Shown: in pieces, positions 7,892 to 29,824 of the stretch
Numbering within the stretch: the first letter of the stretch is position 1
How the letters are laid out: each line of letters begins with the position of its first letter
Source of the DNA: an uncultured Clostridia bacterium
Lineage (GTDB): Bacteria; Bacillota; Clostridia; Christensenellales; UBA1242
Assembly (NCBI GenBank): GCA_944377825.1
Contig: CALWGA010000050.1
Span: 329 to 64,328 of the forward strand
DNA length: 64,000 nt
Reading direction: 5' to 3'
Made by a program: the position numbers and the translations under genes
Notes under the pieces: generated by a model
The model's input: the letters and a program-made list of their open reading frames with translations, nothing else
Database searches by the model: none
What the model was told of the DNA's origin: nothing

Positions 7892-9184
7892 ATGATAGAC
7901 ATAAACTTAATAAGAACGAATAAAGAACTTGTGAAAGAAAATATTAGAAAGAAATTCCAAGACGAAAAATTGCCGCTTGTTGACGAAGTGGAAGAGTTAG
8001 ATAAGAAAAATCGCGCTCTAAAGCAAGAGGCTGACTCTTTGAGAGCATCAAGAAATAGTCTAAGCGAAAAAATCGGAAAATTGATGCGAGAAAAGAAGAT
8101 TGAAGAGGCAAACACAATCAAAGAAACCGTTAAAAAGAACAACGAACGCATCGCCGAGATTGAAAAAGAAGAGAGCGTGCTTGACAAGAAAATCAAGAAG
8201 ATTATGATGACCATTCCGAACATCATTGACGATAGCGTGCCAATCGGTAAGGACGACAGCGAAAATGTAGAAGTAGAAAGATTTGGCGAGCCAAAAGTGC
8301 CAAACTTTGAAATTCCATATCATGCCGACATCTTAAAAAGATTTAACGGCTTAGATAAGGAAAGCGCAGGAAGAACAAGCGGAAACGGCTTTTACTATCT
8401 TATGGGCGACCCAGCGCGCTTAGTTAGCGCCATGATTAACTACGCACGCGACTACATGATTGAAAAGGGCTTTATCTACTGCATCCCGCCGTTCATGATT
8501 CGAAGTGATGTTGTCAATGGCGTTATGAGTTTTGCTGAAATGGACGCCATGATGTATAAGATTGAAGGCGAAGATTTATTCTTAATCGGCACCAGCGAAC
8601 ACAGCATGATAGGAAAATTCAAAAACCAAATCATAAACGAAAAAGAGTTGCCGATAACCATGACCTCATATAGCCCATGCTTCCGTAAAGAAGTTGGCGC
8701 GCATGGCATTGAAGAGCGTGGAATCTATCGCGTTCACCAATTCGAAAAGCAAGAGATGATTGTGCTCTGCAAGCCAGAAGAGAGCATGGAGTGGTATAAC
8801 AAGATGTGGAGTTACACAGTGGAAATCTTCCGCAATATGAACATCCCTGTCCGCACGCTTGAATGTTGCAGTGGCGACCTTGCTGATTTGAAGGTTAAAA
8901 GTTGCGATGTGGAAGCATGGAGTCCGCGCCAAAAGAAATATTTTGAAGTCGGTTCTTGCTCCACTTTAGGAGACGCTCAGGCAAGGAGACTCGGCATAAG
9001 AGCAAAGGGCGAAAAAGGAAACTACTATGTTCACACTCTTAACAACACCGTGCTTGCCTCCACCCGCGCACTCATTGCCCTACTTGAGAACAACTTGCAA
9101 GAGGACGGAAGCGTGCTTGTGCCAGAGGTTCTTCAAAAATACATGGGCGGAAAGACCAAAATCGTGCCTGTCGATAAAAAGTAA
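7892..9184 (+). CDS. serS: Seryl-tRNA synthetase
   Basis: 430 aa with an N-terminal coiled-coil arm (MIDINLIRTNKELVKENI...) and class II core motifs (...FRKEVGAHG..., ...RVHQFEKQEM..., ...NNTVLASTRALIALLEN). AAGGAG RBS. Confidence 0.93.
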   Translation: MIDINLIRTNKELVKENIRKKFQDEKLPLVDEVEELDKKNRALKQEADSLRASRNSLSEKIGKLMREKKIEEANTIKETVKKNNERIAEIEKEESVLDKKIKKIMMTIPNIIDDSVPIGKDDSENVEVERFGEPKVPNFEIPYHADILKRFNGLDKESAGRTSGNGFYYLMGDPARLVSAMINYARDYMIEKGFIYCIPPFMIRSDVVNGVMSFAEMDAMMYKIEGEDLFLIGTSEHSMIGKFKNQIINEKELPITMTSYSPCFRKEVGAHGIEERGIYRVHQFEKQEMIVLCKPEESMEWYNKMWSYTVEIFRNMNIPVRTLECCSGDLADLKVKSCDVEAWSPRQKKYFEVGSCSTLGDAQARRLGIRAKGEKGNYYVHTLNNTVLASTRALIALLENNLQEDGSVLVPEVLQKYMGGKTKIVPVDKK

Positions 9185-9454
9185 TCTTTTTGTCACATAA
9201 AAAATTTTTGTTTAAATATAAAAATTAAAGATTTAAAAAACTTAAGACTTAAAACACTAAAGCAAATTTTATATTAAACCAAAAAAGTTGCGTTTACCCT
9301 TCCCTCAACTTTTTTATTATAATTTATTTATCTTTTCAGTTTTTAACTTTTTTTATTATTTTCATATTTTTCTCAAATTTTTATTAATTTTCACTAGTTT
9401 TTTTATATTTTTTTAGATTTAACGCATTTTTTTCAGACTTTTTTATTTGATTAT

Positions 9455-9484
9455 AAAAAAGCCACCTTGGTTTTGGTGACTTTT
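9455..9484. terminator. Bidirectional terminator between convergent serS and the 138-aa ORF
   Basis: AAAAAA-GCCACC-ttggtttt-GGTGAC-TTTT: a hairpin with A-run and T-run flanks, so it is usable on both strands. Confidence 0.55.
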
Positions 9485-9521
9485 ACATAACAAAAATTGT
9501 TATTTATTATTTTACCGAGGG

Positions 9522-9938
9522 TCAAAACTCCCCCCCCCGCACTGGAGTTTGCTTTTCAGTAGTCTTGGCTTCGCAAATGATAATTTCGCGCGCTTGCACA
9601 AGGCGTTTTTCACAATTTCGGCTATAGGTGTAGATGAAATCTTCGTTTCCGTTCTTCGAAATAAAAGATATAACTTGATATTTGCTCATGTCGTTGTTAT
9701 CTCTTTTGATTTTTATCTCCTCATCGCTTACGCCAGCGTTTTCAAATCTATAACATAATAAAGACGCATTGCTATTTAATGTTTGAACTGACTTTTCTGC
9801 CATCCATCTATTCGCATATTTATATAACTCCCAAGCAATATCGCCTGTCAAGTAAATTTTACTATCAGGATTATTTTTTATCGTGCCTTTTATAGTTTCA
9901 AAAATGTCGTCATTTTTATTGAAATTAACATTGTCCAT
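9522..9938 (-). CDS. Hypothetical 138-aa protein with a G9 tract in its last codons
   Basis: ORF with its own promoter (9969-9997) and terminator. No motif recognised. The coding-strand G9 (plus-strand C9 at 9530-9538) encodes ...RGGEF-stop. Confidence 0.55.
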   Translation of the reverse strand: MDNVNFNKNDDIFETIKGTIKNNPDSKIYLTGDIAWELYKYANRWMAEKSVQTLNSNASLLCYRFENAGVSDEEIKIKRDNNDMSKYQVISFISKNGNEDFIYTYSRNCEKRLVQAREIIICEAKTTEKQTPVRGGEF

Positions 9939-9968
9939 ATTTTCTCCATTAAATAATTTTTCGCTAAT

Positions 9969-9997
9969 AGTCTACCACAATAATCGCATGATGTCAA
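9969..9997 (-). promoter_or_regulatory. Sigma-A-type promoter of the 138-aa ORF
   Basis: Minus strand reads TTGACA (9997-9992) - 17 bp - TAGACT (9974-9969), preceded by TGG (extended -10). Confidence 0.5.
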
Positions 9998-10003
9998 TAT
10001 TCT

Positions 10004-10031
10004 ATAAAAAAATAGCCAAAAATTGGCTATT
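10004..10031 (-). terminator. rpoC terminator
   Basis: Minus strand has ATAGCCA-attt t-TGGCTAT followed by T7, about 35 nt after the rpoC stop. Confidence 0.6.
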
Positions 10032-10064
10032 TTCTAATTAAAATTTGTCTTTAACTTATCCGCT

Positions 10065-13000
10065 TTAAATTGCAGTTTCTTCTTTTTCCACCTTAACAGG
10101 AACAACGGAGCGGTATTTTTTAAGTCCAGTTCCTGCTGGAATAAGTTTGCCGATGATGACATTCTCTTTGATACCAACAAGGTTATCGACCTTGCCCTTA
10201 AGAGCGGCATCAGTAAGCACTCTCGAAGTCTCTTGAAAGGAAGAAGAAGATAGGAAGGAGTCTGTCATAAGAGCAGCACGTGTGATTCCAAGAAGCATTC
10301 TTCTTGCAATAGCAGGACGTCCACCTTCACGCAAAACTCTCTCATTTTCTTCGTCACAACGCGAGATGTCAACAATTTCGCCTGTCAAGAGGTCAGTATC
10401 TCCAGAGTCCTCAATCTTAACCTTCTTAAGCATCTGACGGATAATGATTTCGATGTGTTTATCATTAACCTTAACATCCTGTCCGCGGTAAACTTTGATA
10501 ACTTCGCTGAGTAGGTACTGCTCAAGTCCCTTAAGACCTTTGGTGCGGAGTAAGTCGGTTGGGTTGATTGCACCGCCAGTGAGTTGCGTTCCTGGTTCAA
10601 CATTTTCGCCCTCTTTAACCTTCAAAACGGCAGGTTTTCTAACTTCATAGTCAATATCGCCTTCGCCGGTTAAGATTGTGATGGTGTAGTTCTTAGCATC
10701 CTCTCTGATGTGAACTTTACCAGCAACTTCGGAAAGCAAGCACTCGCCCTTTGGCTTTCTTGCTTCGAAAATCTCTTCAACTCTCGGCAAACCTTGAGTG
10801 ATGTCGGCAGCAACCGCAGAACCACCAGTGTGGAAAGTTCTCATGGTAAGTTGCGTGCCCGGTTCGCCAATGGACTGAGCGGCAATGATACCAACCGCCT
10901 CGCCAAGTGGAACCATATCTTTGCCAGCCATGTTTCTGCCATAGCACTTCGCACAAACGCCATGTTTGCAACGGCAAGTGATAAGTGAACGAATTTGAAC
11001 TTCTTTGATGCCAGCCTTTGTGATTTCATCTGCTTGTTTTTTGGAAATCATCTCATTTGAGTGAACGATAATTTCCTTTGTCTTAGGATTTACAATATCC
11101 TCAACTGCCACACGACCATAGATTCTTTCAGCCAAAGTCTCTTGAACAAAGCCGTCTGTGACAAGGTCAGTAACTGTCACGCCTTTAATCTTCTCGCCAG
11201 TTTCAGCAAAGCAGTCTTTACTTGTTATCACAACGTCCTGAGCAACATCGACAAGTCTTCTTGTTAAATATCTAGAGTCTGCAGTCTTAAGCGCTGTGTC
11301 GGACAAACCTTTTCTCGAACCACGAGAGTTGACGAAATACTCAATAGGAGTAAGACCTTGTCTGAAGGAAGATTTGATAGGTGTGTCAATCTTAGTTCCA
11401 GATGCGGTTGTCTTAATACCAATCATACCGCAGTCACTGTTCAACTGCACGGTGTTACCACGCGCGCCAGAAAGCACCATAAGTGAGAATGGGTTGAATG
11501 GGTCAAGCGACTTAACAACCGCGTCTTGCACCTTGTTAACCGCATGGTTCCAAATGTCGATGTTTGCATCCAACTTTTCGTTTAAAGTGATAAGTCCGCG
11601 ATTCAAAAGTTTCTCATTTTCAAGCACTTGGTCTTCTGCTTCTTTCATAATCACTTTCTTCTCTTTTGGCTCTTCAATATCAAAGATATTAACCGAAATT
11701 GAAGCAAGTGTGGAATATTTATAACCTATTTCCTTTAATTTATCAACAAGGTCAGCGGTCGCAGTTGTTCCAAACTTATCATAAACATCTCCAACCAAGT
11801 TTTTAAGTTCCTTCTTCATAACCGGCTTGTTGATTTCAAGTTCGCAGATGTTATCTTCAATCGTTCTATCAACATAGCCAAGGTCTTGAGAAATTATGTT
11901 GTTAAATAGTATTCTTCCAACGGTTGTCACAACACGCTTGGTGTAAGTTTTACCATTGACCTCTTTTGTAAGTCTAACAGTGCATTCCGCTTGAAGGTCA
12001 AGGTTCTTAGTTTGGTATGCATAAATCATCTCGTTGCGGGATGCGAATATGCTACCTTCGCCCTTAGCGCCAGGTCTAACAAGTGTCAAGTAGTAGCATC
12101 CAAGCACGATATCCTGTGATGGAGAAACGATAGGTTCGCCGTCGGAAAGTTTTAAGATGTTGTTCGAAGCAAGCATCAAAGTTCTAGCCTCAGTGCGCGC
12201 ATCGATAGAAAGAGGAATGTGAACAGGCATTTGGTCGCCGTCGAAGTCAGCGTTGAACGCAGCGCAGGCAGATGGATGGAGTTTAATCGCATTGCCTTCC
12301 ACAAGCACAGGCTCAAACGCCTGAACGGAAAGTCTGTGAAGAGTTGGAGCACGGTTCAAAAGCACTGGATGGTCTTTGATGACATCAGCCAAAATATCCC
12401 AAACCACTGGCTTTTCGCGTTCAATCATACGCTTTGCAGTTTTGATGTTGTTTGTTAAGTTCATTTCAACAAGTCTGTTCATAATGAAAGGCTTGAAGAG
12501 TTCAAGCGCCATCTCCTTTGGAAGTCCACACTGATATATTTTAAGTTCTGGTCCAACCACGATAACCGAACGACCTGAGTAGTCAACACGCTTACCAAGA
12601 AGGTTCTGTCTGAAGCGTCCTTGCTTACCACTGAGCATAGCAGAGAGTGATTTCAAATCTCTTTGCTTTGAGCCTTGCACAGCCTTTCCGCGCTTACCAT
12701 TGTCGATAAGATTGTCAACAGCCTCTTGAAGCATTCTCTTTTCGTTACGGCAGATAACGTCAGGAGCGCCAAGTTCGATAAGTTTTTTCAAACGGTTATT
12801 TCTGTTGATAACTCTGCGGTATAGGTCGTTCAAGTCGCTTGTTGCATATCTTCCGCCATCAAGTGGCACCATAGGACGAAGGTCTGGTGGAAGCACTGGA
12901 ATAACATCAAGCACCATCCAAGTTGGATTGTTTCCACTCTTTCTGAAAGACTCCACAATGTCAAGTTTCTTAGCCGCCTTAATCTTTCTTTGACCTTTAG

Positions 13001-13595
13001 AGTTTTTAAGTTCTTCTTTTAACTCCTTTGCCTCTCTTTCAAGGTCAACATCGCCAAGGAGTTTCTTGATAGCCTCAGCACCCATACCAGCCTCAAAACT
13101 TCCAGCACCGTATTTTTCAAGTGCATCACGATATTCCTTGTCAGTTAAAATTTGTTTATATTCTAGGTCAGTTGATTTAGGGTCTGTTACGATGTAATTG
13201 ATATAATATACTACTTGCTCCAAAGTTTTTGGAGTAAGGTCAAGTAGCATACCGATACGAGATGGCACCGTTCTAAAATACCATAGATGTGTCACAGGGC
13301 AAGCAAGTTCAATATGTCCCATTCTTTCACGGCGCACCTTGCTTCTCGTAACCTCAACGCCACACTTGTCGCAGATTACACCACGATAGCGAATCTTCTT
13401 GTATTTTCCGCAGTGGCATTCCCAATCCTTTTTAGGTCCAAAAATTCTCTCGCAGAACAAACCATCTTTTTCTGGCTTTTGAGTTCTGTAGTTGATAGTT
13501 TCTGGCTTTGTGACCTCACCATGAGACCATTCTCTAATCTTCTCTGGTGAAGCAAGTCCTATTTTGATTTTTTCAAAGTTATTAAGTTCAAACAT
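10065..13595 (-). CDS. rpoC: DNA-directed RNA polymerase subunit beta'
   Basis: 1176 aa. Zn-finger [23 protein letters not shown], catalytic NADFDGDQM, and trigger-loop and bridge-helix regions are recognisable. Confidence 0.97.
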
Positions 13596-13645
13596 AACAA
13601 TCCCCTAAAAATAAATTTATATATATTATCATTTGTGCAAATGTT

Positions 13646-14107
13646 TTATCTATTAATCTCTTTTTCTTTTACTCCATAAGGAGTTTTAGAAATTTTTATT
13701 TCTTCATTTCCGCTTAGAATACTCTCTCTGTATTGTAAACAAGTGTTAATATCGCCAATCTGTTTTTCAGAATAATGATTTCCAAACACCACCACACCGC
13801 CTTTAATCGGCATGCCTTTCCCATCTTCAGCAAAATAAGCAGGGTAATATTTCTTCAAAAATTCATCTTGCTCAGGAGTGGTGTAGATTGTGTAAATAGA
13901 ATTTTTACTTAAACCATGCCTGTTTTTGAAAACATTGGCAGGAATAAAAGACTTTTGCTGAGCAAATTCATCAAATGGTTCATCATTTGGATAAGTGAAA
14001 GGCAAATTTATCTTTTCTTTACTTAGATAAAAATCTTTAATTTTCAAATTTCTTGCATCAAAGATACTTATGCGATATTTTCCTTTTACTTCATTTTTGT
14101 TAATCAT
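13646..14107 (-). CDS. Hypothetical 153-aa protein, paralog 2 of the rpoB-rpoC insert
   Basis: Shares FDA..., PFTYP, EPF(D/E)EF, KSFIP..VFK.RHGL, TIY..PEQD.FLK.YY, DG.G..IK...VVFGNHY.E.QI.DI.TCL with ORF 14167..14589. No family recognised. Confidence 0.6.
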   Translation of the reverse strand: MINKNEVKGKYRISIFDARNLKIKDFYLSKEKINLPFTYPNDEPFDEFAQQKSFIPANVFKNRHGLSKNSIYTIYTTPEQDEFLKKYYPAYFAEDGKGMPIKGGVVVFGNHYSEKQIGDINTCLQYRESILSGNEEIKISKTPYGVKEKEINR

Positions 14108-14166
14108 TTGCCTTCCCTCCTTTATGTTTTTAATAGGTAAATTTTCATTGGTTATTATTAATATTT

Positions 14167-14589
14167 TTATAATGAATGTTTTCTTTCATTGTCGTCCATT
14201 TTTGTTTTTAGTTTCAAACAGGTGTAAATATCATCTATTTGACTTTCAGTGTAGTGATTTCCAAAGACGACTTTGCTATCTTTAATAAGTTGACCAATCC
14301 CATCTTTAGCATAGAATGTTGAATAATAATCTTTCAAAAACTTGTCTTGTTCAGGTGAGCAGTAGATTGTGTGAATTATTTTTCTAAACAAACCATGCCT
14401 TTTTTTAAAAACATCTAAAGGAATAAAAGATTTTATATGTTGATTAAATTCTTCAAATGGTTCCACATACCTTGGATAAGTGAAAGGCTGTTTTATTTCC
14501 TCACCGTTCAAAAAGAAATCATAAAAACACATACATGTCGCATCAAAAACAGTCACACAATATTTTTTCTTTTCGTCTATGAAACTCAT
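14167..14589 (-). CDS. Hypothetical 140-aa protein, paralog 1 of the rpoB-rpoC insert
   Basis: Shares the motif set listed for 13646..14107. AAAGGAG RBS lies before ATG 14589. Same strand as rpoB and rpoC. Confidence 0.6.
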   Translation of the reverse strand: MSFIDEKKKYCVTVFDATCMCFYDFFLNGEEIKQPFTYPRYVEPFEEFNQHIKSFIPLDVFKKRHGLFRKIIHTIYCSPEQDKFLKDYYSTFYAKDGIGQLIKDSKVVFGNHYTESQIDDIYTCLKLKTKMDDNERKHSL

Positions 14590-14716
14590 TCTACTCCTTT
14601 ATGTCTTTATTAAGCAATGTTTTATCTAGAATTAACACTTTTTACCACACTCTATTTAAATAATCCACAACTCTTCACTGAAAACCGAAGGTTTTCCTTC
14701 ACTTTTCACTCTTCAC

Positions 14717-17700
14717 TTATTCGTCGAAGTCCCCAAAATCATCAAACAAATCGATATCGTCAATGCCTTGAGTTGAAGTCTGTTCATCGATTGCCTCTTG
14801 AATATCACTCTTCTTTTCTTCTTCGCCTTGGTCGTTAATTAGTTCGTCAAGGTCGATAGTGACATTCTTAAGGTCATTTTCAACATCCTGTTCCATTGAA
14901 GGTTTATCGTGTTCGTCTTGCGATAGTTCTGGAAGGTCAATCTCTTCATCATTCTCGGTCAAAATCTTCACATCAAGCGCAAGTGCTTGTAATTCCTTTA
15001 CTAACACTTTGAAGGATTCTGGAATACCTGGCTCTGAAATTGGCTCGCCTTTCACGATTGCTTCAAAGGTCTTAACACGGCCAACAACATCGTCAGACTT
15101 CACTGTGAGCATTTCTTGAAGAACGTGGCTTGCGCCGTATGCTTCAAGCGCCCAAACTTCCATTTCACCAAATCTCTGACCACCGAAGAGCGCTTTACCA
15201 CCGAGTGGTTGTTGAGTGATGAGTGAGTATGGTCCAATCGAACGAGCATGCACTTTACTGTCAACCATGTGGTTAAGTTTAAGCATATATTTTATGCCGA
15301 TTGTGGTCTTGTTCTCAAATGGCTCGCCTGTTCTTCCGTCATAGAGTTGAACTTTGCCATCTTCTGGGAAATTGTTTTCTTTAAGTAGTTCCTTAATGGA
15401 AGCGACATCTGCGCCATCAAACGCTGGAGTTGCCACTTTCCAACCAAGGCTACCTGCAACAAGTCCCAAATGCACTTCAAGCACCTGACCTAAGTTCATA
15501 CGCGCTGGAACGCCAAGTGGATTAAGCACGATGTCAAGTGGTTTGCCGTTTGCCATAAATGGCATATCAGCCTCTGGCATAACGATGGAAACGACACCTT
15601 TGTTGCCGTAACGACCGCTCATCTTGTCGCCGACAGAGAGTTTTCTCTTCTGAGCGATATAGACTTTGACAAGTTCGTTGACGCCTGGTTCAAGTTCGTC
15701 TTTATTCTTCCTTGAGAACACTTGAACATCAACAACAATTCCGCCCTTGCCATGTTGCACGCGAAGAGATGTGTCTCTAACCTCTCTCGCCTTCTCGCCG
15801 AATATAGCGCGGAGTAATCTCTCTTCAGGACTTAATTCTGTTTCGCCCTTAGGAGAAACCTTACCAACTAAGATGTCGCCTGGACGAACCTCAGCGCCGA
15901 TTCTAACAATTCCGTTCTCGTCCAAGTTCTTAAGAGCATCCTCGCCAAGATTTGGAATATCGCGAGTGATTTGCTCGTCGCCTAACTTTGTGGTTCGACA
16001 TTTAAGTTCTTCCACTTTCAAGCAAATTGAAGTGTAAATATCGTCTTTCACAAGTCTTTCGTTGATAATGATAGCATCCTCGAAGTTGTATCCTTCCCAG
16101 TTCATATAGCCGACAAGCACATTCTTTCCAAGTGCAAGTTCGCCATTTTCACAAGAATATCCGTCGATGATGACGTCGCCCTTATTAACCTTTTCGCCTT
16201 TCTTTACGCAAGGTTTTTGGTTGATGCAAGTTTCGTCATTTGTCTTTTCAAACTTAGTAAGTGGATAGATGTCCACAGTGCCTTCGTTATTTTTAACTCT
16301 AACTTCGTCAGCGCTGACATATTCCACAACACCGGCGTTTTTAGCAAGTGTGCAGTAACCTGAGTCACGCGCCACAACCTCTTCCATACCAGTTCCAACA
16401 ACTGGAGACTCTGGTCTTAAAAGTGGAACGGCCTGTCTCTGCATGTTTGCGCCCATGAGCGCACGGTTTGCTTCGTTTGAATTAAGGAATGGAATGAGCG
16501 AGGTTGCCACTGAAATGAATTGTCTTGGAGATGCGTCCACGAGGTCAACCTGTCTTGCTGGAACATCGACAACATAGTCCTTATGACGGCAGATAATTCT
16601 CTTGTTGACAAATCTACCTTCTTCATCAAGTGGCTCGGTTGCCTGAGCGATGTAAGCGGTGTCCTCAATATCTGCCATATAATATTCGCACTTATCAGAA
16701 ACCTTGCCTGTCTCCTTATCCACTTTTCTATATGGAGTTTCAAGGAAGCCATATTCATTGATTTTAGCGTAACTTGTCATGGTGTTAACAAGTCCAATAG
16801 CCTGACCTTCTGGGGTTTCGATAGGGCAGATACGTCCATAGTTTGTGTAGTGAATATCACGCACTTCTGCGTCCGCTCTTTCCTTTCTGATACCGCCAGG
16901 TCCAACAGCGGAAACACGGCGTTTCTGAGTTATTCCAGAAAGCGGGTTCACTTGGTCCATAAACTGCGAAAGTTGTGAGGTTGCCACGAAATCGCGGAGC
17001 GCTCTGTTCACAGCCTTAGGGTTGACAATCTGTCTTGGAGTGACCTCAGAAAGTTCCTTACCTTGCAAGGTCTCACGAACATTGGAAACAAGTTTTGTCA
17101 CGCCCGAACGGAAGTGGTCGTATAATAACTCTCCACAAGTTGCAATTCTCTTGTTTGAAAGGTGTTCAATCTTATCTGTCTTTGCAATGCCTTCGATAAC
17201 ATCCAAATACATGCTGATTGATGCCAAAATATCGTCCATAGTAAGCGTGGTTATCATTAAATCTTTCGCTCTTTCACGGATTGCCTGCATTCTCTTCTCT
17301 TTGGACTTATTTTCTTTCAAAATCTCTTTGAGAACAGGATAGTAAACTTCCTCTAAAATTCCAAGGTCCTTTTCGTTGCAAGGCAAGACGTCGGAAAGTC
17401 TAACTCTGTTGTTGCCACGAATTAGATATTTCTTATCTGGAAGTTGAATCCAAACCTCGTTAATTCCGCTTGCCTTAATCTTGTTTGCAGTTTCAGCGTC
17501 AATCTCTTGACCTGCTCTTGCTAAGATTTCGCCGTCCTCAGTTACGATGTTTTCAGCGGCAACCTGACCGGTAATACGCCTTGCGATAGAAAGTTTCTTA
17601 TTTAAGTTATATCTACCAACTCTTGAAAGGTTGTAGTATTGGTCAGAGAAGAACCAAAGGTTAAGATAGTTTCGTGTGGTCTCAGCGCTTGGCACATCGG

Positions 17701-18427
17701 CAGGACGAGTTTTTCTTGCAAATTCAAGAAGCGCCTCTTCCTGAGTTTGTTGAGGCTCTTTTTCAAGCACATGTTTCACAAGTCTATGGCCACCAAAAAG
17801 TTTAGAAATCTCGTCAGCGGTGTAGCCAAAGCATTTTAAGAACAAACCAAGCGTGATTCTGTTTCGCCTGTCAAGCACGATGTTCAAAACTTCATTCGCA
17901 CCCTGCTTAACTTCGATATACATACCTCTCTTTGGAATGATTTGACCAACAAGCGTGGAATTGTCTTGATTTTTGTCTCTTAATAGGTAATAGTTTGGCG
18001 ATTTGATGATTTGATTGACAATAACTCTTTCAACACCATTGATGATAAAGGTGCAGTCATCTGTCATATATGGAATGTCGCCTAAAAAAACGACATCTTC
18101 AACAGCCTGACCTGTCTCTTCCACAACAAAACGCGCCCTGACATTTAAAGGGATAGAATAAGTGGCACTTCTACGCTTGCACTCCTTGGTGGAATATTTA
18201 GGCTCTTTGTCCATAACAATGTCAAGAAGATAAAGTTTAGCCTTACCGCTGTAGTCAACGATAGGCGAAAACTCGTCTAATGCTTCACGTATGCCATGCT
18301 CCAAGAAGTCTTTAAAAGATTTTCTTTGAATTTCAAGAAGAGATGGAATTTGAATATAGTCTTTGAGTTTTGCAAAGGTATATCTTTCGGCTTTTCCAAA
18401 TTTTTGTTTTTTAAGTTCTACTGACAT
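14717..18427 (-). CDS. rpoB: DNA-directed RNA polymerase subunit beta
   Basis: 1236 aa with conserved blocks (...GDKMSGRYGNKGVVS..., ...GGQRFGEMEVWALEAYGA...) and a long acidic C-terminal tail. Confidence 0.97.
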   Translation of the reverse strand: MSVELKKQKFGKAERYTFAKLKDYIQIPSLLEIQRKSFKDFLEHGIREALDEFSPIVDYSGKAKLYLLDIVMDKEPKYSTKECKRRSATYSIPLNVRARFVVEETGQAVEDVVFLGDIPYMTDDCTFIINGVERVIVNQIIKSPNYYLLRDKNQDNSTLVGQIIPKRGMYIEVKQGANEVLNIVLDRRNRITLGLFLKCFGYTADEISKLFGGHRLVKHVLEKEPQQTQEEALLEFARKTRPADVPSAETTRNYLNLWFFSDQYYNLSRVGRYNLNKKLSIARRITGQVAAENIVTEDGEILARAGQEIDAETANKIKASGINEVWIQLPDKKYLIRGNNRVRLSDVLPCNEKDLGILEEVYYPVLKEILKENKSKEKRMQAIRERAKDLMITTLTMDDILASISMYLDVIEGIAKTDKIEHLSNKRIATCGELLYDHFRSGVTKLVSNVRETLQGKELSEVTPRQIVNPKAVNRALRDFVATSQLSQFMDQVNPLSGITQKRRVSAVGPGGIRKERADAEVRDIHYTNYGRICPIETPEGQAIGLVNTMTSYAKINEYGFLETPYRKVDKETGKVSDKCEYYMADIEDTAYIAQATEPLDEEGRFVNKRIICRHKDYVVDVPARQVDLVDASPRQFISVATSLIPFLNSNEANRALMGANMQRQAVPLLRPESPVVGTGMEEVVARDSGYCTLAKNAGVVEYVSADEVRVKNNEGTVDIYPLTKFEKTNDETCINQKPCVKKGEKVNKGDVIIDGYSCENGELALGKNVLVGYMNWEGYNFEDAIIINERLVKDDIYTSICLKVEELKCRTTKLGDEQITRDIPNLGEDALKNLDENGIVRIGAEVRPGDILVGKVSPKGETELSPEERLLRAIFGEKAREVRDTSLRVQHGKGGIVVDVQVFSRKNKDELEPGVNELVKVYIAQKRKLSVGDKMSGRYGNKGVVSIVMPEADMPFMANGKPLDIVLNPLGVPARMNLGQVLEVHLGLVAGSLGWKVATPAFDGADVASIKELLKENNFPEDGKVQLYDGRTGEPFENKTTIGIKYMLKLNHMVDSKVHARSIGPYSLITQQPLGGKALFGGQRFGEMEVWALEAYGASHVLQEMLTVKSDDVVGRVKTFEAIVKGEPISEPGIPESFKVLVKELQALALDVKILTENDEEIDLPELSQDEHDKPSMEQDVENDLKNVTIDLDELINDQGEEEKKSDIQEAIDEQTSTQGIDDIDLFDDFGDFDE

Positions 18428-18448
18428 AACAACACTCCTTAATCAGAC

Positions 18449-18494
18449 TAAAAAAGGAAACAATATGGCAAAAAACTTTGCCACAATGTTTCCT
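18449..18494 (-). terminator. Strong terminator-like hairpin in the rpoB leader
   Basis: Minus strand has AGGAAACATTGTGGCAAA-gtttt-TTGCCATATTGTTTCCT (about 17-18 bp stem with two mismatches) followed by TTTTTT. It ends about 20 nt before the rpoB RBS. Confidence 0.6.
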
Positions 18495-18547
18495 ATATTA
18501 AGTTAAAAATCGCGATATTCTTCCACATTTATGATAATAACCACTTA

Positions 18548-18577
18548 ATTATAACAACATTTAGAACTCTTTGTCAA
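18548..18577 (-). promoter_or_regulatory. Consensus sigma-A promoter upstream of rpoB
   Basis: Minus strand reads TTGACA (18577-18572) - 18 bp - TATAAT (18553-18548), preceded by TGT (extended -10). Confidence 0.6.
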
Positions 18578-18774
18578 TAGTTTTTTTAAAAAAATTTTAA
18601 AAATAGCAAAAATATACTTAGTTAATGATATTTTAACAAGTAATCAAGCAAAAATCAAGCGATTTTAATAAAAATATATATAAATTTTATTGCCCACATA
18701 AAAAATTTTAAACAAAAAAAGGAAAAAGAGGTTAAATCTCCTTTCCTTTTTATGTTAATCTTCAAACATATCGC

Positions 18775-21700
18775 CTATAAACTCGTGAAATCTCTGCTGA
18801 CGCCCATACCAAAATCTGTCAAGTATAGAGTATGCTCCGACTCGCCGTTTTCCATATAGAAGGTGTAGGTCACGTCATGGCTGTAGATTGGAAGAATATA
18901 GAAATTATCTGTGTCCATAGAGCCATCTGCACGGAGATTTGCACCAAAACTAACTGTTGTTATCACTGTTTCTCCATCAATGTCAAGCGTTGCGGTTGAA
19001 GGAGAATAGAACGAGTTGGTAGTTTGAACGATATGTCCCCTGTCGGTCTCTGCTGATGTTTCTGTGAAATTAAGTTCATTTACAAACATCGTTCCGCTTC
19101 CTGGCAAAATCCCGCTACTTGTGATAAGGTTATAGTTATATGAAGAATTTGATATATATGCACTCTCAGTGAATTCTTCTGGACTACTCCACCCCATATT
19201 ATAACTTAAAACATTAGCAGTATACGCGCTCACGGTGTTGTTGACACTCACCATATTGCTCAAAGTGTAGCCAACAATCTCGCCAAGGTAGACATCTAAG
19301 ATTGTTCCATAAGTATACGCTAAAACATATGCATCAAACTGAACATTGTTTGCTTCGCTTAGATACTGCGAATTGATAACGCTTCTATCGTCACTCGTGT
19401 AGATGTCAGTAGAAAGAACATACTCTTCAGCGTCAATAGCCTGTGTAAATTCTAGGTATGACGAGTCATCTGTTCCGCTGTTTCGCAATGATTCATAGTA
19501 GTTATTAATGCTGTTTTTCAAACTCTCTGTTAAATCAGCGGTTATATTTATGCTTGATGTGTCAGTCGCCGAGCCAATCATGCCTCCGATAGACGCTTGC
19601 GATTGTTGTGTGGATAAAACTGAGAGATAGCCGTTGGTGTAATTGATGTTACGCATGTTGACAACATTGTTTATGCCTGTTACTCCGCCGACGATACCAC
19701 CCACCGAACTAAAGCCGATGTAAGAGCCTTGAATGTCGATATTAGTTATAGTCACACTTCCGCTCACTGTTCCGATTAAGCCACCAAGATAGGAAACGCC
19801 TGAGGTGTTTGTGGAACTTGAGAGATTTAGGCTTTGGTTAGCGGAAACATCGTTTATTTCTCCGCTCGACATAAGCCCAACAACTCCACCAACCGCAGTT
19901 GGATAGTTTGGAATGTTGTTGAATATCGTTTCATAAAGCCCTGTTCCAATAACATCAACACTGCTTATTCTTCCAGCACTTTCTCCGATAACAAGTCCGC
20001 CATAAAAGTAAGCATTAATCATGAAATCTTCATCCACGGTCAAGGTCAAGTTGGACGCTCTTGCTTCTCTGCCAACCATTCCAATAAGACCACCAGCGGT
20101 TGAACCTATCACGGAGACGGCAGAAGATACAGATGCCTTATTGACAATTCCACTGCCACCAGCCACGCCGACAATGGCGCCAGCGTATGAACTACTGCTG
20201 AAATCAGAACTGTTTTCATTGAAAAAGTTTGCACTGCTACTTGATGGAATGTAAGTCGCCCTTGCTGAAGCGTAAGAGGAGACATTTTCAATGTCATAAT
20301 ATCCAACTGCAATTCCCACAAGACCACCACTTATGTTGTTTGCTGAAATCATGACATCGCTATCGCCTAACAAATTCACATTTGTTATAATTCCGCCGTC
20401 TAAGCGCCCTGTGATACCACCAGAAACTTGCGTGTTAGTGAACACCATCTCCGCAGGTTCCAAGTTGAAATTCATCACCGTTCCAATAGCATCTTGTCTT
20501 GTGGAAGAGCCGATTTCCGCAAAGAAGCCAGCATAGGTCAATCTTTCACTTGTCACCATGCGCACATTTGAAATCGTCAAGAAATTGCCCTCTAAGTAAC
20601 CCATAAATCGTGTTCTAAAGAGTTCGCTGTTGTCATCATAATCTGAATAATCTATATTATTGATGAGTCTATAGTAAGCGTGATTGTAATTGTTGTTGTC
20701 ATTTTCGTTTAAGATGTAATTTTCAAAGTTTTCGGCGTTATCAAGCAAAATAGGATTTGTTATACTGCCACTTTCTCCACTTTCTGCCGTGTTCAAGTAG
20801 TGATAGATAACCATGCTTACGCCAGTTTCGGCATCCACAACCTCTTCTGCTGAATATAGATATCTTTGTGAGAATGCGATGATATTAGGCGCGACAAGTT
20901 CCAACCTGTTCAAATTGAAATTCTGCCCGTCGTAATACGCGGAAGTGTTGGTGTTGTTATAGAACCAAACTGCATTATAGCCTCTATCTGAAGAATAAAC
21001 AAAGTTTTGGAAATGCTCAGCAAAATCTTCGTCAGTGATGTTGAAATCTTCAATAGTCAAAGGTTCAATGGAAGTGTTTGCGTTGTTATCAATTGTTGCA
21101 ATACTAACATTGACATTTTCTTCACTATCACTTAAATAGTAAGCATCTTGAATGGTTCCAGAGTTTGCTCTTGCAAAGCCGTAACTTAACGTGCTGTTGC
21201 TTGTTAAAACACTTGTTGAGAAGGACGAACTCACACTTCCACCCGATTGATTGCTGAACACAAAGCCAGACGCATAGGAACTTGTGTTGTTCATGTAGAT
21301 GTTAGAATAAGAGTTGGAAATCTCGCCTGAATTCATGAACACAAAGCCAGAAATTGCGTTATGTGAGGTTATGAAACTTTCGCTATCTCTGCTGTAAACA
21401 TTTTCGCCGTCATTTACCACGCCCGAAACATACGATGTGTTAATCTCTCCACTGTTTGTCACAACAAAGCCGGCAGTATATTCCGTCGTTGTGGTCGTTT
21501 CATTTCGTAGTGCTCCACCATAGAAATATGATGAAGATATCGTTCCTGAGTTATTACCAACAAAACCTGCTAAGTTAACATTTGTGAATATGCTTACCGA
21601 ACTTCTCGAATTGGTGATAATTCCAGAGTTTCTGCCCACCATTCCGGCAACATATGAGCCAGAACTAACGCAAGAAACGGACAATGCAGAATTGTTGTTT

Positions 21701-24700
21701 GCAACCACACTGCAGTTTGTTATAACGCCACTGTTAGTTCCTGCAATCAGGCCTAAATTGAAACTTGAACTTGTTAAAGTGAAGATTGTGTTGGAATAGA
21801 GTTCGACTGTTAGATTTCGCACAACCACATTATCGTCATTCACGCCTATCGTCTCAAAAACGCCAACACTACTGCCGTCGAAGGTGTAGTTTCCGCCAAA
21901 TAGGAGTGAGTAGCCATTGCCGTCAAAGCCAGCCACATTTGCCGTTATCGGCGTGAAAGGATTGATGCTGTCATTGTTTGGCAAGATAATATCGTTAAGT
22001 AGGATATAGTATTGCCCATCTTCCATATCCATAAGTTCTTCATATGTTTCAATAGGAAGAGGACTTTCGTTTGTCGATTGCTGATGGATGCTAAATGAGA
22101 ACTCTGTGTAAATTCTTTGACTGTCTAGCGCTCCCGCTGTGTCGACCACATAAAGTCCATTTCTTCTAACAAAATTCGCTTCCATCGAGAAATGATAGAT
22201 GTCTTGCTCTGGCTCGTAAAGCCTTATGCCTGTAAAGACAAGTCCATGAATATAGTAGTAATCACTTCGAATGTCGGTGTTTGCATTAAGAACCAAACCA
22301 TCTCTGCCGGTGGACGAATCATAAATTCTAAAGGTTGCATTGTTTGTTAAGGAGTTGATAAATTCTTGCACATTTCTAACAACCGAATTGTTAGAAGTAT
22401 CATATTCAATGAAATCCCAAATATCAACTTCAAGCGTGTAGGCATTTCCAACGGCAGTGCTAATCACTCCCTCTTCCATACCTCGAACAATGTCCTCATA
22501 TTGACCTTGAATATATTGATAGTCAAACACAAACTCCATTATATACACAGTGAGAATTTCGGAGTACTGCACTGTGACATTGTCGACAACTCGGCTGGCG
22601 TTCACATAGATGTAGAAACGATAGCCAATATCGTCATTAGGTGTTATCACATTGTCGGTTATCTCCAAGGTGTAGGCTGTTCCATTTCCAACAAGCGTTG
22701 CCACATCGCTTGAGATTGTGATGTCAATATCTTCAAGTCCGAAACCATAGTAGTCAAGCGTCATGCCATAATCAAGTCCGCGTGCAACATAGTAGACATC
22801 ACTCTCTTCTCTGTCGTCAAAGGATAGATGTGCATAATTTGCAAGTTTTGTTGTGAGATTAACTTCTTCATATTCCACTTGACCGCTCAAGTAAGAAACT
22901 TCAATATCAAACCTAATCGGCATCTCATCCTGAACGCCAAGCGAACCTAAAAGGTATCGAATGTAGATTTTTCCATTGTAACTCTCGCCGTGATTTTCAA
23001 GATAGTCAACATAGTCGTCATAAGTGAAACTGAGTGATCCACCATAGTTTGAGCCGAAGTTAACATCTGGAACAAAACTTACAACCCCATTTGTTGTGCT
23101 TTGATAAACAAAGGTAAAGTCAACCTCGCCTGCGCCCTCGCTGTAATTTATGCTATTGTTCCTGATTGTAAAGGTGTTAAATTCAGCGTCCACTGGGTCA
23201 ATGCTTATCTCTAAAATTCCATATTGAGATGGCACAATTGTCTCATCACGCACGCTGATATCTCTAATATTCGAATAGTTCACTGCTTCCACATTTGTTA
23301 TCTCTGCTTCGCTTAGGAAGAAGACAAAGTTGGTGTGAACGCCGTTAAATAATTCGTTGGCATAGAAGACAATTCGGTATTCGCCATAGATGTCCGCGTT
23401 TGCTCTGTTTAAATACCTTGCGCTTGTTTTGTTGACGCTTAATTCAAAGGTCATCTCGTTGTTATTTAAAACTTTGTTTATCTTTAGATTGAATAAGTCA
23501 CTGTTTGAATTTAGCATATAAGATTGATATTGCGCTAAATATGCATCTTCTTCAAAATTAATTATCCAATCTGTGCTCATTCTCTGTTGAATTAGATGTT
23601 CATTATTGTTGTCATCAGTATAGTAAATTTCATAATAAACAAACTCGTCATTTCGTGATGTGACATTGATTTTTTCGGTGTAAGTGTCGTTGGTTCTCAT
23701 GGATATAAGATTGGAAGAGACATTGATGGCAGTTGCCGTTTCTCTATACTCAACATCAATTTCAACATCGGCGTTATTTTTGGACGCTCCGATAGGCAGT
23801 CTGTAGACATTTCCGCCAACTTCTGTTTCAAGGTATGAGGTCAAACTGTAGGTATCTGTTCCCTGCAAATTATCGCCATTTCCATAGAACAATATCGACT
23901 GCCCGCTGACTTGATAGGTTGTGTAAAGTGGATTTTCGCAAGTCGCATCAACCACCACACTATCGTTTTGGTTGAGCCTTATGCTGACATTGTTAAGTAG
24001 GAATGTGCCGTCTGAGTTTATCACAACATCTCTTCTCTCTCCATTAGACATTTCATAGGAAAGATTACCAGAACTTAAACTGTAGGTTGGAACGGCGTAG
24101 ATAGAGGTCTGTCTTGTTCCATAAACCACAACCTGTGAGCCGTCGATAAGATTGAGAGAGTTGGTTGTGTTAGACGAATAGAATATTGAATTTTCCGACT
24201 GAATATCTAAATAGTTCACAATGTAAAGATAGATATTGATAGAGGTCTGCACATTCAAAATCGATTGCAAACTAACTATGGCTGTTCCATTTGAATATGT
24301 TGTCAAACTGCCATCCGCATCCACTCTCAAAAGGTTGGTCGATGTAGACAAAATTTGTGCGTCACGCGTGTTTAGTGCAAATGGATAGAGACTTGAGTTT
24401 GGAGAAAATCTGTTTATCGACGTATCTTCAATATAGTCTTGAGCGACGCCGTCAGCATCTTCCGTCAGCATTCCGCTGAAATAGAACATCAAAAAGACGT
24501 TCTCTTCGCCGTTTTCTGAAGTCATAGCAAACATGCTTTCTTGTAAACCTAAATTGACAGCCTGTTTTGTAAATACAAATTGTTCAACAATAGTGTTGCC
24601 GTTGTAAACGAGATAGTCGCCATAATAACTTGAAGTTGAGGTGTCTGATTGATTGATTTCTTCACCCGTATCACCATTTCGATTTCGTGAAACATAAGAG

Positions 24701-27700
24701 CAAACTTCAAAAAGTGCGGTTGTCACGCCTGGGGATATATAACTTCTGCCGTTATCAAAAGAGTTACCTATTGCCACAATAACCTCTTCTGTCACGCCAT
24801 CACTTTCGTTTATATTATCTTCGGTGAGTTTCACAGTTGTTCCACGTAGTAGCATCATGGAACTATCAAACGCACCTCTGCCATCGTCCACTGCTTCAAT
24901 AGCATTTATGGTATTTGCTAGTATTACCCTTCCTCCATCTTGTGTCTCAAAACTTCCACTCTCATCAGTTTCATAGAGAAGATAGTTGACATTTGTGTTT
25001 AATTCAATGCCTAAAATTCCTCCAACATAAAGTTGACCGCGCACGAAAGTTCTTGAGATATTTCCAAGGATATATATATTGTTCTCCCCCGCTCCAGCGT
25101 ATCCGACAATTCCACCCACCGCGCTTGTTGTTGCATCTGATTGAACGTCAACTTCGCCACCAACAAGCAAGTTGTAGATGGTTGCTCTTGGAATTTCGTT
25201 TGAAGTATAGTCGATAGGATTATCGTTGACATAGAAATTTTCTTCATCGCCGGCATCATCCAGTTGTCGAATTATGTTTGAAGATATATTGGCATCTCCT
25301 TGGAAATAACCAACTGCGCCACCTGCGAACAACCTATTCGCCGAAGAGCCAGAAATCTCGATATTTATGTAACTTGAATATGACGCATAGCCATAGACGC
25401 TGAGGTCACTGTTGTCTATCCTATATATATCGCCATAACTTATGCCTGCAATACCGCCAGCATACACACTTGAGTTTACTCCAGTGCCGTCGATGACGAT
25501 GCTGAGTTTAGCATTAAAATAGGCAAGATTTCTTGGCGATTGTCCTTCAAATTCGCCGACCTTATCTTCAATGGTGTAATAAGCGCTCTCTTCCTCTGTT
25601 TTTTCAACATAGGAGTTAAAGTTTTGCACAATTTCGCCAACCGCATAATCGTTGGTATTTCCATCAACACTATAAGTATAGACCGCATTTGAGCCAACAA
25701 GCCCGCCGATAGCATACTCGCCACTGTTGCAAATCAAAATCTCCGACGCGCCTGTGATTTCCGCTCCAACATTGGAAAGTTTGCCATAGTTTACGCCTGC
25801 AAGCAAGCCCGCATAGAAATTGGAGTTAGGAAGATTTGTGGTGTTAAGATTTATAGTTCCAGAAACCGTTAAATTCTTGATGTATCCATCATAGTTTATT
25901 TGAGCAAACAAGCCCGCATAATAGGTAGTTCCAGAGGCTATAGCCGTGATATTTCCATTTTCCGCCTCATCAACCGAAGTTAAAGTTATGTTAAAGTTGG
26001 AAATACCCGCCTGCGAGGTCGTGCCCACAATGGAGCCAGAAAAACCTACTAACTGCTTACCGCTTGCGGTGTTAACAAAGCCTAAAGTCTCACTTTTCAC
26101 TGTTGACATGTCGATATTTGTTCGAATTTCATAGTGACTCGACAAGGTCTCTTCGTTGTTATTTATTGCCAGCACATCTTCCGGAGAGTCGATTATATAT
26201 CTATTCGCCTCCGTGCCATTTCGATAGGATATATCAATTCTAATTGGCGTATGTTCGCCAAGCACAGAATAATCTTCTCCCCACTCGACAGGATAGATAT
26301 ATAAAGTTCCACCAAGTGCCGTTTCAATGGTGTTGATGATATTGCTGTTTGCATTATAGAAATCTTCAACAGAAATTTCAATCAGATAAACGCCCAAACT
26401 CTGCTCTATGATGTTTGTCGTCACAAGCCCTCTTGACGTTGCATTGTCAGCAACAAATTGCGCGTTAAGTTCGATGTTTGTGGCGTTTGTTGGATTGACA
26501 AAAACAATCACTGAATCGCTAAAATAACCATTAGTGAAGGCGAATTCGTCAATACTAGAAGCGGTGCTAACCCTTTCGACTTGGATATATTCAGAAGTGA
26601 TAATGTTGGCGTTATATTGCATCTCTGTGTAGTTACGTTGTCTTATATATGAGTGCAAAACAAAGTCTCCGCTAGTCGAAGCGATATGCGTGTAGGTAAA
26701 GGTGTTTAAATCAAACCTTCCTTGAATGCCGGAGGCTCCAGCGAGCATATATTCGTTTGTGAAATCGATGTTGATATTAAAGTCGATATTGTTAAAATTG
26801 CAAGTGGTGGAGACATCTACTATGTCAAACATTATGCCGTTGCCAAATTCCAAATAGAGAGGATAAGTGGAAGTGAGACCACTTGCAGAACTAATTGTTA
26901 TCACTGCTACAGCAGAAGTGGTCAACGCTTTCGAGTTTGCGTCAGCATAAAAGTAGATAAAATCTCTGCTATATGGACTATATTCAAGTTCAGACACAAT
27001 GTAACTATCGTCTACACTAAGAGTGATAGGCGTATTGCTTACTATATCCTCTGTCACTCCCGCAGTCATTGCGCCAATCAACTCTTCAATCAATCCAGCA
27101 ATTTCGTTAGTTGTCGATAGTTCTTCATCAACTATAATCTCATTCATTAAATCGTCGAAAAATGAGTCGCTGATTTTATACTTATAAAAACCAAATGCCT
27201 CTTGATTTTCCGCGTGAACATCAAAGGTCACACTGGTCGATTCCGTTGGCAAATTTGCACTTTGTCCGTAATAGACCACATTGTCAACGGCAAAACTGCC
27301 TCCATTCATAAGGTAGAATTCATCAAGTAGTGAATAGGACACAACCTCAACATAGTATTCAACCGAAACTGTCGACCTGTTTAACGAACCGCTGACTCCG
27401 TTTCCCTCAACAGTGAAGGTTATATACGCCTCTCCATTCTCATTTGTTGAAATAACATAAGAAAATGTGCCATCACTTCCAACAGAGATTACATTGCCAT
27501 TGTCGACATCAGGCTCTTCAATAGACTCAATATTACCATAAAATCCAAGCCTAACCTCGCTGCCATAGATGACAGTGTGACTATCGTCATCACTTGAAGT
27601 TGGGTTTAAAATCTCAAGAAAGAGCGTGTTGGTGTAAACATCTTCAGCATCCTCAGCAAAATTGGTCGATTTATATTCATAATAACCGACATGGTCAGAC

Positions 27701-29811: not shown

Positions 29812-29824
29812 ACTCCTCCTTTTA

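Follow-up and report, generated by a model that had tools for sequence, protein, structure and literature searches.

A hypervariable orphan gene between rpoB and rpoC in a clade of uncultured Christensenellales

In almost all bacteria, rpoB and rpoC, which encode the beta and beta' subunits of RNA polymerase (RNAP), are neighbouring genes and are co-transcribed. In the stretch of DNA analysed here (the window; 64,000 nt of an uncultured Clostridia bacterium), 1121 nt carrying two open reading frames (ORFs), ORF-A and ORF-B, separate the two genes, which raises the question of what these ORFs are and why they lie inside the RNAP operon. The original prediction described them as a tandem pair of paralogues inserted between rpoB and rpoC, and suggested that they may be an RNAP-associated accessory factor, an immunity-type protein pair or a selfish insertion. 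The present analysis indicates, with near certainty, that ORF-A and ORF-B arose by tandem duplication of an orphan gene specific to one clade. This gene family, including both ORFs, is here named X, and the descriptive account of its position, divergence, mosaicism and copy number given below is likewise near certain. Within this clade, at least six lineages at species level share X; it is a single-copy gene that was duplicated in the window species alone.

Place, copy number and expression of X

The features of the locus are as follows; the limits of the gap are the same as in the original prediction.

18548..18577, reverse strand: sigma-70-type promoter-like site upstream of rpoB, TTGACA-18-TATAAT with TG, 12/12 consensus match
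14717..18427, reverse strand: rpoB, RNAP beta, 1236 amino acids (aa); Pfam RNA_pol_Rpb2_1-7 on the identical gene in contig L002
13596-14716: gap between rpoB and rpoC, 1121 nt
14590..14716, reverse strand: spacer between rpoB and ORF-A, with a UUCG-tetraloop hairpin; its 3' end is the Shine–Dalgarno sequence of ORF-A
14167..14589, reverse strand: ORF-A, the upstream paralogue, 140 aa
14108..14166, reverse strand: spacer between ORF-A and ORF-B, carrying the Shine–Dalgarno sequence of ORF-B; its leader is homologous to the ORF-A leader
13646..14107, reverse strand: ORF-B, the downstream paralogue, 153 aa
13596..13645, reverse strand: spacer between ORF-B and rpoC, with the palindrome CATTTGCACAAATG and the rpoC ribosome-binding site TAGGGGATT; conserved across species
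10065..13595, reverse strand: rpoC, RNAP beta', 1176 aa; Pfam RNA_pol_Rpb1_1-5 on the identical gene in contig L002

ORF-A and ORF-B share 68 of 125 aligned residues (54%; BLASTP, E 1e-46), including all the motifs quoted in the original prediction, and are thus true paralogues. With a nonsynonymous divergence (dN) of 0.35 and a synonymous divergence (dS) of 1.4, their duplication is old. The duplicated unit spans about 480 nt including the leader, as marked by direct repeats D1–D3 spaced 477–482 nt apart, and a 13-nt direct repeat brackets the pair (13640-13652 and 14616-14628). The order rpoB-A-B-rpoC was found again in the window species on 10 further, mutually independent contigs from metagenomes, with both duplicates intact and ORF-A identical or a 1-aa variant (P0003). 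Throughout, relatives are metagenome contigs (L numbers), and species are inferred via the identity of the flanking genes. The dN/dS ratio (omega) between ORF-A and ORF-B, together with the reading frame and motifs kept in the orthologues of other species, indicates that both ORFs are true coding sequence. ORF-B is the positional orthologue of the relatives' single copy, contig L012 aligning unbroken through ORF-B into rpoC.

Several signals place X within the operon, as originally predicted. The site at 18548..18577 is likely the operon promoter, judging from its match to the consensus, and both ORFs have a Shine–Dalgarno sequence ahead of their ATG (AAAGGAG for ORF-A, at a distance of 5 nt; AAAGGAGGGAAGG for ORF-B). 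A consensus scan of the reverse strand from rpoB to rpoC detected no convincing intrinsic terminator. The hairpin GAAAACC-UUCG-GGUUUUC (14680-14696), whose stem is capped by a C(UUCG)G tetraloop, lacks a U-tract and lies between AGTGAAG repeats, in agreement with the earlier description. The 130-nt spacer between rpoB and ORF-A folds with a minimum free energy of −25.1 kcal/mol (z = −3.7, better than 200/200 shuffles), whereas the spacer RNA between ORF-A and ORF-B is unstructured. Rfam covariance models gave no relevant match at E ≤ 1 in window positions 9000-19500 or in contigs L001, L012 and L019, and no tRNA-like gene was found in the spacers. In L013, X begins 11 nt after the rpoB stop codon and ends 30 nt ahead of the rpoC start; since spacers this short leave no room for separate signals, X would have to be transcribed with rpoB and rpoC in these relatives. 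We infer that X is made from the rpoB promoter and hence together with beta and beta'. Fusion of X to beta by read-through or frameshift was also considered and rejected, because gaps of 11 and 28 nt are out of frame.

The family is unrecognised, small and sharply bounded. Neither ORF matched a family in Pfam-A (hmmscan, E ≤ 10), NCBIfam or the PADLOC-DB defence profiles (E ≤ 1), and PHROG gave nothing meaningful (best E 0.075). The only sequence-profile match in the Protein Data Bank (PDB), to SRP14 (E 0.05), was judged to be due to chance because the topology is different. When 1.84 billion cluster representatives at 50% identity were scanned exhaustively with HMMER, a three-sequence profile returned ten hits, of which seven are genuine (the two window ORFs, P0002, P0005, P0006, P0007 and P0010); P0004, P0008 and P0009 are repeat or low-complexity artefacts. 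Two further profile searches in a collection of 5.8 billion sequences yielded 11 and then 18 clusters at 90% identity, with no score between E 1e-44 and E 1, and it is this empty range that marks the family as tiny and sharply delimited. A species-representative genome set contained one match, in Candidatus Caccovivens faecavium, which belongs to GTDB genus UBA11517, family UBA1242, order Christensenellales (PMC8035907).

Every X member with a readable contig is located in the gap between rpoB and rpoC, within the Ca. Caccovivens/UBA1242 (Christensenellales) clade. The relatives keep the same synteny, namely a giant protein of about 3700 aa, rpoB, X, rpoC, a variable region, serS, ftsA and ftsZ. 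The carriers are as follows.

Window species: 10 contigs, two copies
C. faecavium type: L001, L012 and L023, one copy
P0005 group: L013–L015, L020, L022 and L024–L029, one copy
P0006: L016–L018, one copy
P0010: L019, one copy
P0007: L030, one copy

A scan that was anchored on the invariant rpoC start, and was thus independent of X, detected one further relative, L021, which has a 249-nt spacer between rpoB and rpoC without X. The rpoB gene of L021 is 92% identical to that of the others, and the rpoB tree remained unrooted. Searches with tblastn in 50,697 phage and 72,556 plasmid records, as well as in the viral contigs of IMG/VR, identified no X homologue. No transposase, integrase or terminal inverted repeats were detected at X, where the only repeats seen are those of the tandem duplication. 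Furthermore, full-text literature searches returned no comparable description of a protein gene conserved between rpoB and rpoC.

X is thus a vertically retained yet recombining clade-specific accessory gene. The original prediction of a pair inserted between rpoB and rpoC has to be revised, as X is shared as a single copy by at least six lineages and its presence does not reflect a recent insertion. The suggestion of an immunity-type protein pair is not supported either, because all other carriers have a single copy and no partner gene in the gap. Toxin–antitoxin and toxin–immunity modules moreover consist of dissimilar partners, whereas ORF-A and ORF-B are paralogues of each other. On this evidence, X is neither a recent mobile insertion nor a phage moron, and it is neither part of an obligate two-protein module nor a recognisable enzyme.

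Divergence and recombination of X

Between species, beta and beta' are 92–97% identical, whereas X is 27–57% identical. The corresponding dN is 0.02–0.06 for rpoB and rpoC and 0.34–0.74 for X, with dS near saturation in all three, so that the nonsynonymous rate of X is 10–30 times that of its neighbours. The X tree is out of step with RNAP similarity: P0006 and P0010 have the most divergent X, and their RNAP is 96–97% identical. The GC content of X is 29–35%, against 40–45% in the flanks, with the exception of L019 (40%), and the GC content at third codon positions (GC3) is also lower than in the flanks.

Within the P0005-group species, X also contrasts sharply with its flanks. In a MAFFT-based profile of seven alleles, nucleotide diversity (pi) is about 0.02 in the flanks but 0.13–0.31 in X; the change falls at the rpoB stop codon on one side and, on the other, at the rpoC ribosome-binding site, about 20 nt ahead of the rpoC ATG. 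L013 and L020 are 99–100% identical over 8 kb; the exception is the 3' two-thirds of X, where identity falls to 68–86%. Synonymous (piS) and nonsynonymous (piN) diversity are 0.36 and 0.122 in X, while rpoC has values of 0.11 and 0.0009 over its first 133 codons; codon bias may lower piS of rpoB and rpoC somewhat, though both genes nonetheless reach a dS of about 1 between species. Relaxed constraint alone cannot raise synonymous diversity, which implies that the X alleles are old, through either balancing selection or re-import. X remains under purifying selection, with a piN/piS of 0.34 in every segment and a pairwise omega of 0.17–0.34, and coding-type conservation thus extends to the relatives, in keeping with the original prediction.

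The X alleles of the P0005-group species are also mosaics. The Hudson–Kaplan minimum number of recombination events (Rmin) reaches 13 in the 450 nt of X, compared to values of 1 and 3 for the flanks. The N-terminus (three types), the loop at residues 40–50 (at least four), the core (three) and the tail (four) are joined in many combinations, and block mosaics are visible among at least 15 X allele clusters at 90% identity. In the window species, the cassette of ORF-A and ORF-B is nearly identical among strains (two SNPs), while the adjoining rpoC and rpoB 3' tracts differ by up to 20–37% at synonymous sites, a pattern that fits exchange of the cassette through its flanks. The identical cassette in the diverged strains L005, L010 and L011 was at first read as proof of a cassette sweep; this reading was downgraded because rpoC itself holds patchy imported tracts. 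Such tracts lie at 12438-12678 and 12834-13566 of the window, with 5–8% synonymous divergence between strains that are otherwise ~100% identical (L002, L005 and L010), and indicate frequent homologous recombination inside rpoC of the window species.

These data bear directly on the possibility that X serves RNAP in a housekeeping capacity, as an accessory subunit or assembly factor analogous to delta, epsilon or omega, whose position would provide stoichiometric co-synthesis and co-translational assembly without any genetic conflict. The strict place of X between the two largest-subunit genes in every carrier, its tight spacing, a motif set kept across saturated synonymous divergence and a Clostridia background without epsilon would all suit such a subunit. 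However, its presumed partner is far more conserved than X itself, the many old mosaic alleles in one species form a pattern abnormal for housekeeping subunits, and X is missing from L021, varies in copy number and is lower in GC and GC3 than its flanks. We thus regard a housekeeping subunit as distinctly improbable. A partner conserved at 92–97% cannot drive a 10–30-fold faster evolution together with old mosaic alleles, and a third, fast-evolving party is the simplest alternative.

Predicted protein and candidate functions

Eleven columns are invariant in the family (D17, F37, Y39, K52, F54, P56, Y75, G98, F108, G109 and Q116). Since these are mainly aromatic residues, glycine and proline, with D, K and Q as the only polar ones, X resembles a binding protein rather than a catalyst and probably acts by binding, as far as its conservation pattern indicates. 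The protein is soluble, with no signal peptide and no membrane segment, and its isoelectric point (pI) is not conserved (5.3–9.4). AlphaFold2 (AF2) with the family alignment predicted ORF-B to be a compact domain (predicted local distance difference test score, pLDDT, 75.9; predicted TM-score, pTM, 0.71; 50 residues above 90), and ORF-A to have the same topology (pLDDT 72, pTM 0.69). The predicted order is a beta-hairpin, the PFTYP/FEEF loop, a short helix, a strand, a long helix, the FGxxY loop, a second long helix and a disordered tail, that is, a compact beta-beta-alpha-beta-alpha-alpha domain with a confident core. Foldseek searches with the two models against the PDB and BFVD gave no match below E 0.1, and X showed no fold similarity to the solved RNAP epsilon, delta or omega subunits or to phage Gp2. 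The searched databases thus contain no relative of X by either family or fold.

The least probable explanation, in our view, is a free-standing homing endonuclease or other nuclease aimed at the junction of rpoB and rpoC in alleles lacking X. A place between two highly conserved essential genes, a presence/absence polymorphism between species (L021) and recombination tracts adjoining the cassette are what such an element might produce. Against it, Pfam detected no LAGLIDADG, GIY-YIG, HNH, PD-(D/E)XK or other nuclease domain in X, the invariant residues form no catalytic constellation of His, Glu or Cys, the predicted fold matches no nuclease, and all sampled strains of the carrier species hold X.

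A DNA-binding regulator of rpoC or of the operon, with a degenerate Myb/SANT-like helix acting at the palindrome CATTTGCACAAATG, is also very improbable. The idea draws on the motif YTTPEQDEFLKKYYP, which looks like the first helix of Myb repeats (WTPEEDEILKKYYP in P0008), and on the DNA adjoining X. The motif, as TPEQDEFLKKYYP over 13–15 residues, is nearly identical to helix 1 of the bacterial Myb/SANT repeat (PF00249), and the palindrome, a perfect 14-bp sequence at 13630-13643, directly follows the ORF-B stop codon and is unique in the window. The palindrome occurs at the same place in L001, L012, L019 and L023, representing three species groups, and the 50-nt spacer containing it is almost invariant across species at a dS of about 1; it may be a putative operator or an internal promoter element for rpoC. 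However, the L013 and L016 groups, which carry X and have a gap of only 26–30 nt between X and rpoC, lack the palindrome. Alignment with nine Myb repeats by hhalign covered 15 columns at a probability of 40%, Pfam Myb models did not match X even at E ≤ 10, and only one helix aligned, the predicted three-stranded sheet of X being absent from Myb domains. Furthermore, pI is not conserved and is often acidic, and an invariant target should not give a hypervariable regulator. Homology to the Myb domain, a lead that came from the spurious P0008 hit, was therefore rejected after the hhalign comparison.

In kind, X most resembles either lineage-specific small RNAP accessory proteins or conflict genes of defence hot spots. 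Epsilon (RpoY/YkzG), delta (RpoE) and omega (RpoZ) are, like X, small, soluble and lineage-restricted; they are bound to the RNAP core, whereas for X such binding is a proposal. They share neither sequence (Pfam) nor fold (PDB, Foldseek) similarity with X, and they are conserved whereas X is hypervariable. In the genome of Bacillus subtilis, their genes are not known to lie between rpoB and rpoC. For the RNAP of Bacilli, a protective role of epsilon against phage inhibitors of the Gp2 type has been suggested; Clostridia have no epsilon (10.1101/2021.06.06.447298). With defence and restriction–modification hot spots, X shares presence/absence and copy-number variation, AT-richness, shuffled old alleles and sharp edges of diversity. 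Unlike the genes of such hot spots, X has no PADLOC match and is a single, tiny, non-enzymatic-looking protein inside an essential operon.

Considering these results, we tentatively favour, with somewhat less than even confidence, the reading that X is a clade-specific, non-enzymatic accessory protein that is co-expressed with beta and beta', is associated with RNAP and is engaged in genetic conflict. Its only constant neighbours are beta and beta', and operon neighbours made together often interact, so that RNAP is the most economical partner. The absence of X in L021, its duplication, its low GC content and a nearby restriction–modification hot spot would all be in favour of an accessory character. 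We propose the following scenario. A conserved face of X (FDA, PFTYP, FEEF, KSFxP and FGxxY/L) may dock on the nearly invariant beta or beta', and the variable loops and C-terminal tail may be turned towards a fast-evolving adversary. X might then shield RNAP from phage-encoded or other proteins or toxins that target it, serve as a decoy for them or sense them, and recombination between the conserved rpoB and rpoC flanks could carry X alleles from strain to strain. The more specific proposal, that X is a hypervariable protection riding on RNAP which blocks, decoys or senses inhibitors of the phage, toxin or lasso-peptide type, and thus amounts to an immune polymorphism in the core enzyme, is unlikely on present grounds; in it, the shuffling of alleles between the rpoB and rpoC flanks would furnish variation for an arms race. 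Among the three roles first suggested, an accessory factor of the conflict type would be preferred, and the accessory factor in the form of a housekeeping subunit would not.

Several points weigh against this scenario. Gene adjacency by itself is no proof of physical interaction, and at least one species (L021) can do without X. No gene-wide positive selection was detected, omega being below 1 wherever it was computed, and the high synonymous diversity of X could result from introgression instead of balancing selection. The recombination tracts in rpoC of the window species indicate that the population recombines generally. In addition, the AF2 models were built on a shallow alignment of 13–20 sequences, and the searches described above revealed no similarity of X to known RNAP-binding or defence proteins.

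The main rival is that X is a hitchhiking orphan or selfish passenger in a permissive, recombination-prone and transcribed slot, with any function being unrelated to RNAP; it might be, for example, an immunity gene without a toxin, an anti-defence gene or a gene of slight benefit. X would then be maintained by the cost-free transcription that this place offers and by homologous recombination, which would shuttle it through the conserved flanks. This explanation is a possible one, although we lean against it. It is consistent with the loss of X, or its never having been gained, in L021, with the AT-richness of X and the neighbouring restriction–modification hot spot, and with the tendency of the gap to gather other material, namely hairpin repeats (two copies in L019, others in L023 and in L005/L010), a 265-nt insertion in L011 and a 150-nt block shared with L021. 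However, X is intact in at least six lineages at a dS of about 1, with its omega of 0.17–0.34 and 11 invariant residues, and both duplicates are intact in 10/10 strain contigs. Its absence from any other locus among 15 billion proteins, and from phages and plasmids, would be odd for a free mover, and neither a transposase, an integrase, a terminal inverted repeat nor a nuclease motif accompanies it.

Variable surroundings and significance of the locus

The gap and the adjoining intervals contain further variable features, listed here with their positions.

L019:1962-2487; L023:~455-500; insertion at window 14685 in L005/L010: hairpin-bearing repeat element of ~85 nt
L021:225-473 (reverse strand) versus L023:480-700 and L012:1-160: non-coding block of ~150 nt
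Window 9185-10064; L002:14044-17800; L013:12018-14457; L015:12018-15536: interval between rpoC and serS

The repeat element (GTAGAAAAGTTACAAAAGAC..GGGGAGTTTCGATTCTCCCC..TTACTTTAAAAAAGTAAG) lies just downstream of rpoB in several relatives, and its presence varies among strains of the window species, L005 and L010 having an insertion of ~140 nt at window position 14685. In L019, two such elements flank a perfect TTGACA-17-TATAAT. A tRNA-like reading of the GGGGAGTTTCGATTCTCCCC element was rejected, as ARAGORN and Rfam were negative. The non-coding block, GGGCWCC..AAAATGCTT..TGACGCTGTCGC, is also located downstream of rpoB and is conserved between one species without X (L021) and species with X. 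In L011, a strain of the window species, an insertion of 265 nt lies between ORF-B and rpoC (L011:1643-1907, at window position 13648); it starts with a second copy of AAAACATTTGCACAAAT and could encode a small ORF.

Outside the gap, the interval between rpoC and serS is a strain- and species-variable restriction–modification/Mrr hot spot in the relatives. It contains Mrr_cat and NA-iREase1 in L013, a DNA methylase and an NgoFVII-type restriction enzyme in L015, and a metG-like gene in L002, and is empty in L014 and L020; in the window it contains a 138-aa orphan ORF (9522..9938, reverse strand) with no family match. On the other side of the operon, the position directly upstream of rpoB, usually that of rplJ-rplL, is taken by a giant ORF of 3696 aa (window 18775-29865, reverse strand) with no recorded Pfam match (L002 and L013), which is kept next to rpoB in all relatives at 3042–3754 aa. 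In addition, beta has an acidic C-terminal extension of ~80 residues (window 14717-14960; 32/79 D/E, pI 4.05, ending in DDIDLFDDFGDFDE), present in all relatives, which recalls the acidic tail of the Bacillus delta subunit.

Whichever reading applies, X is a clearly delimited orphan whose core is predicted with confidence and for which no relative in fold could be detected, and is thus a reasonable target for structure determination. If X does not bind RNAP, even the interior of the rpoBC operon can serve as a recombination-driven slot for accessory genes, which would matter for the use of rpoB and rpoC as phylogenetic markers and for models of operon evolution. If X binds RNAP, it would be a new lineage-specific RNAP factor in Clostridia-type bacteria and a natural system for the defence or manipulation of the core enzyme in genetic conflict. 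X is among the most polymorphic stretches beside two of the most conserved genes of the genome, and the whole lineage keeps it.

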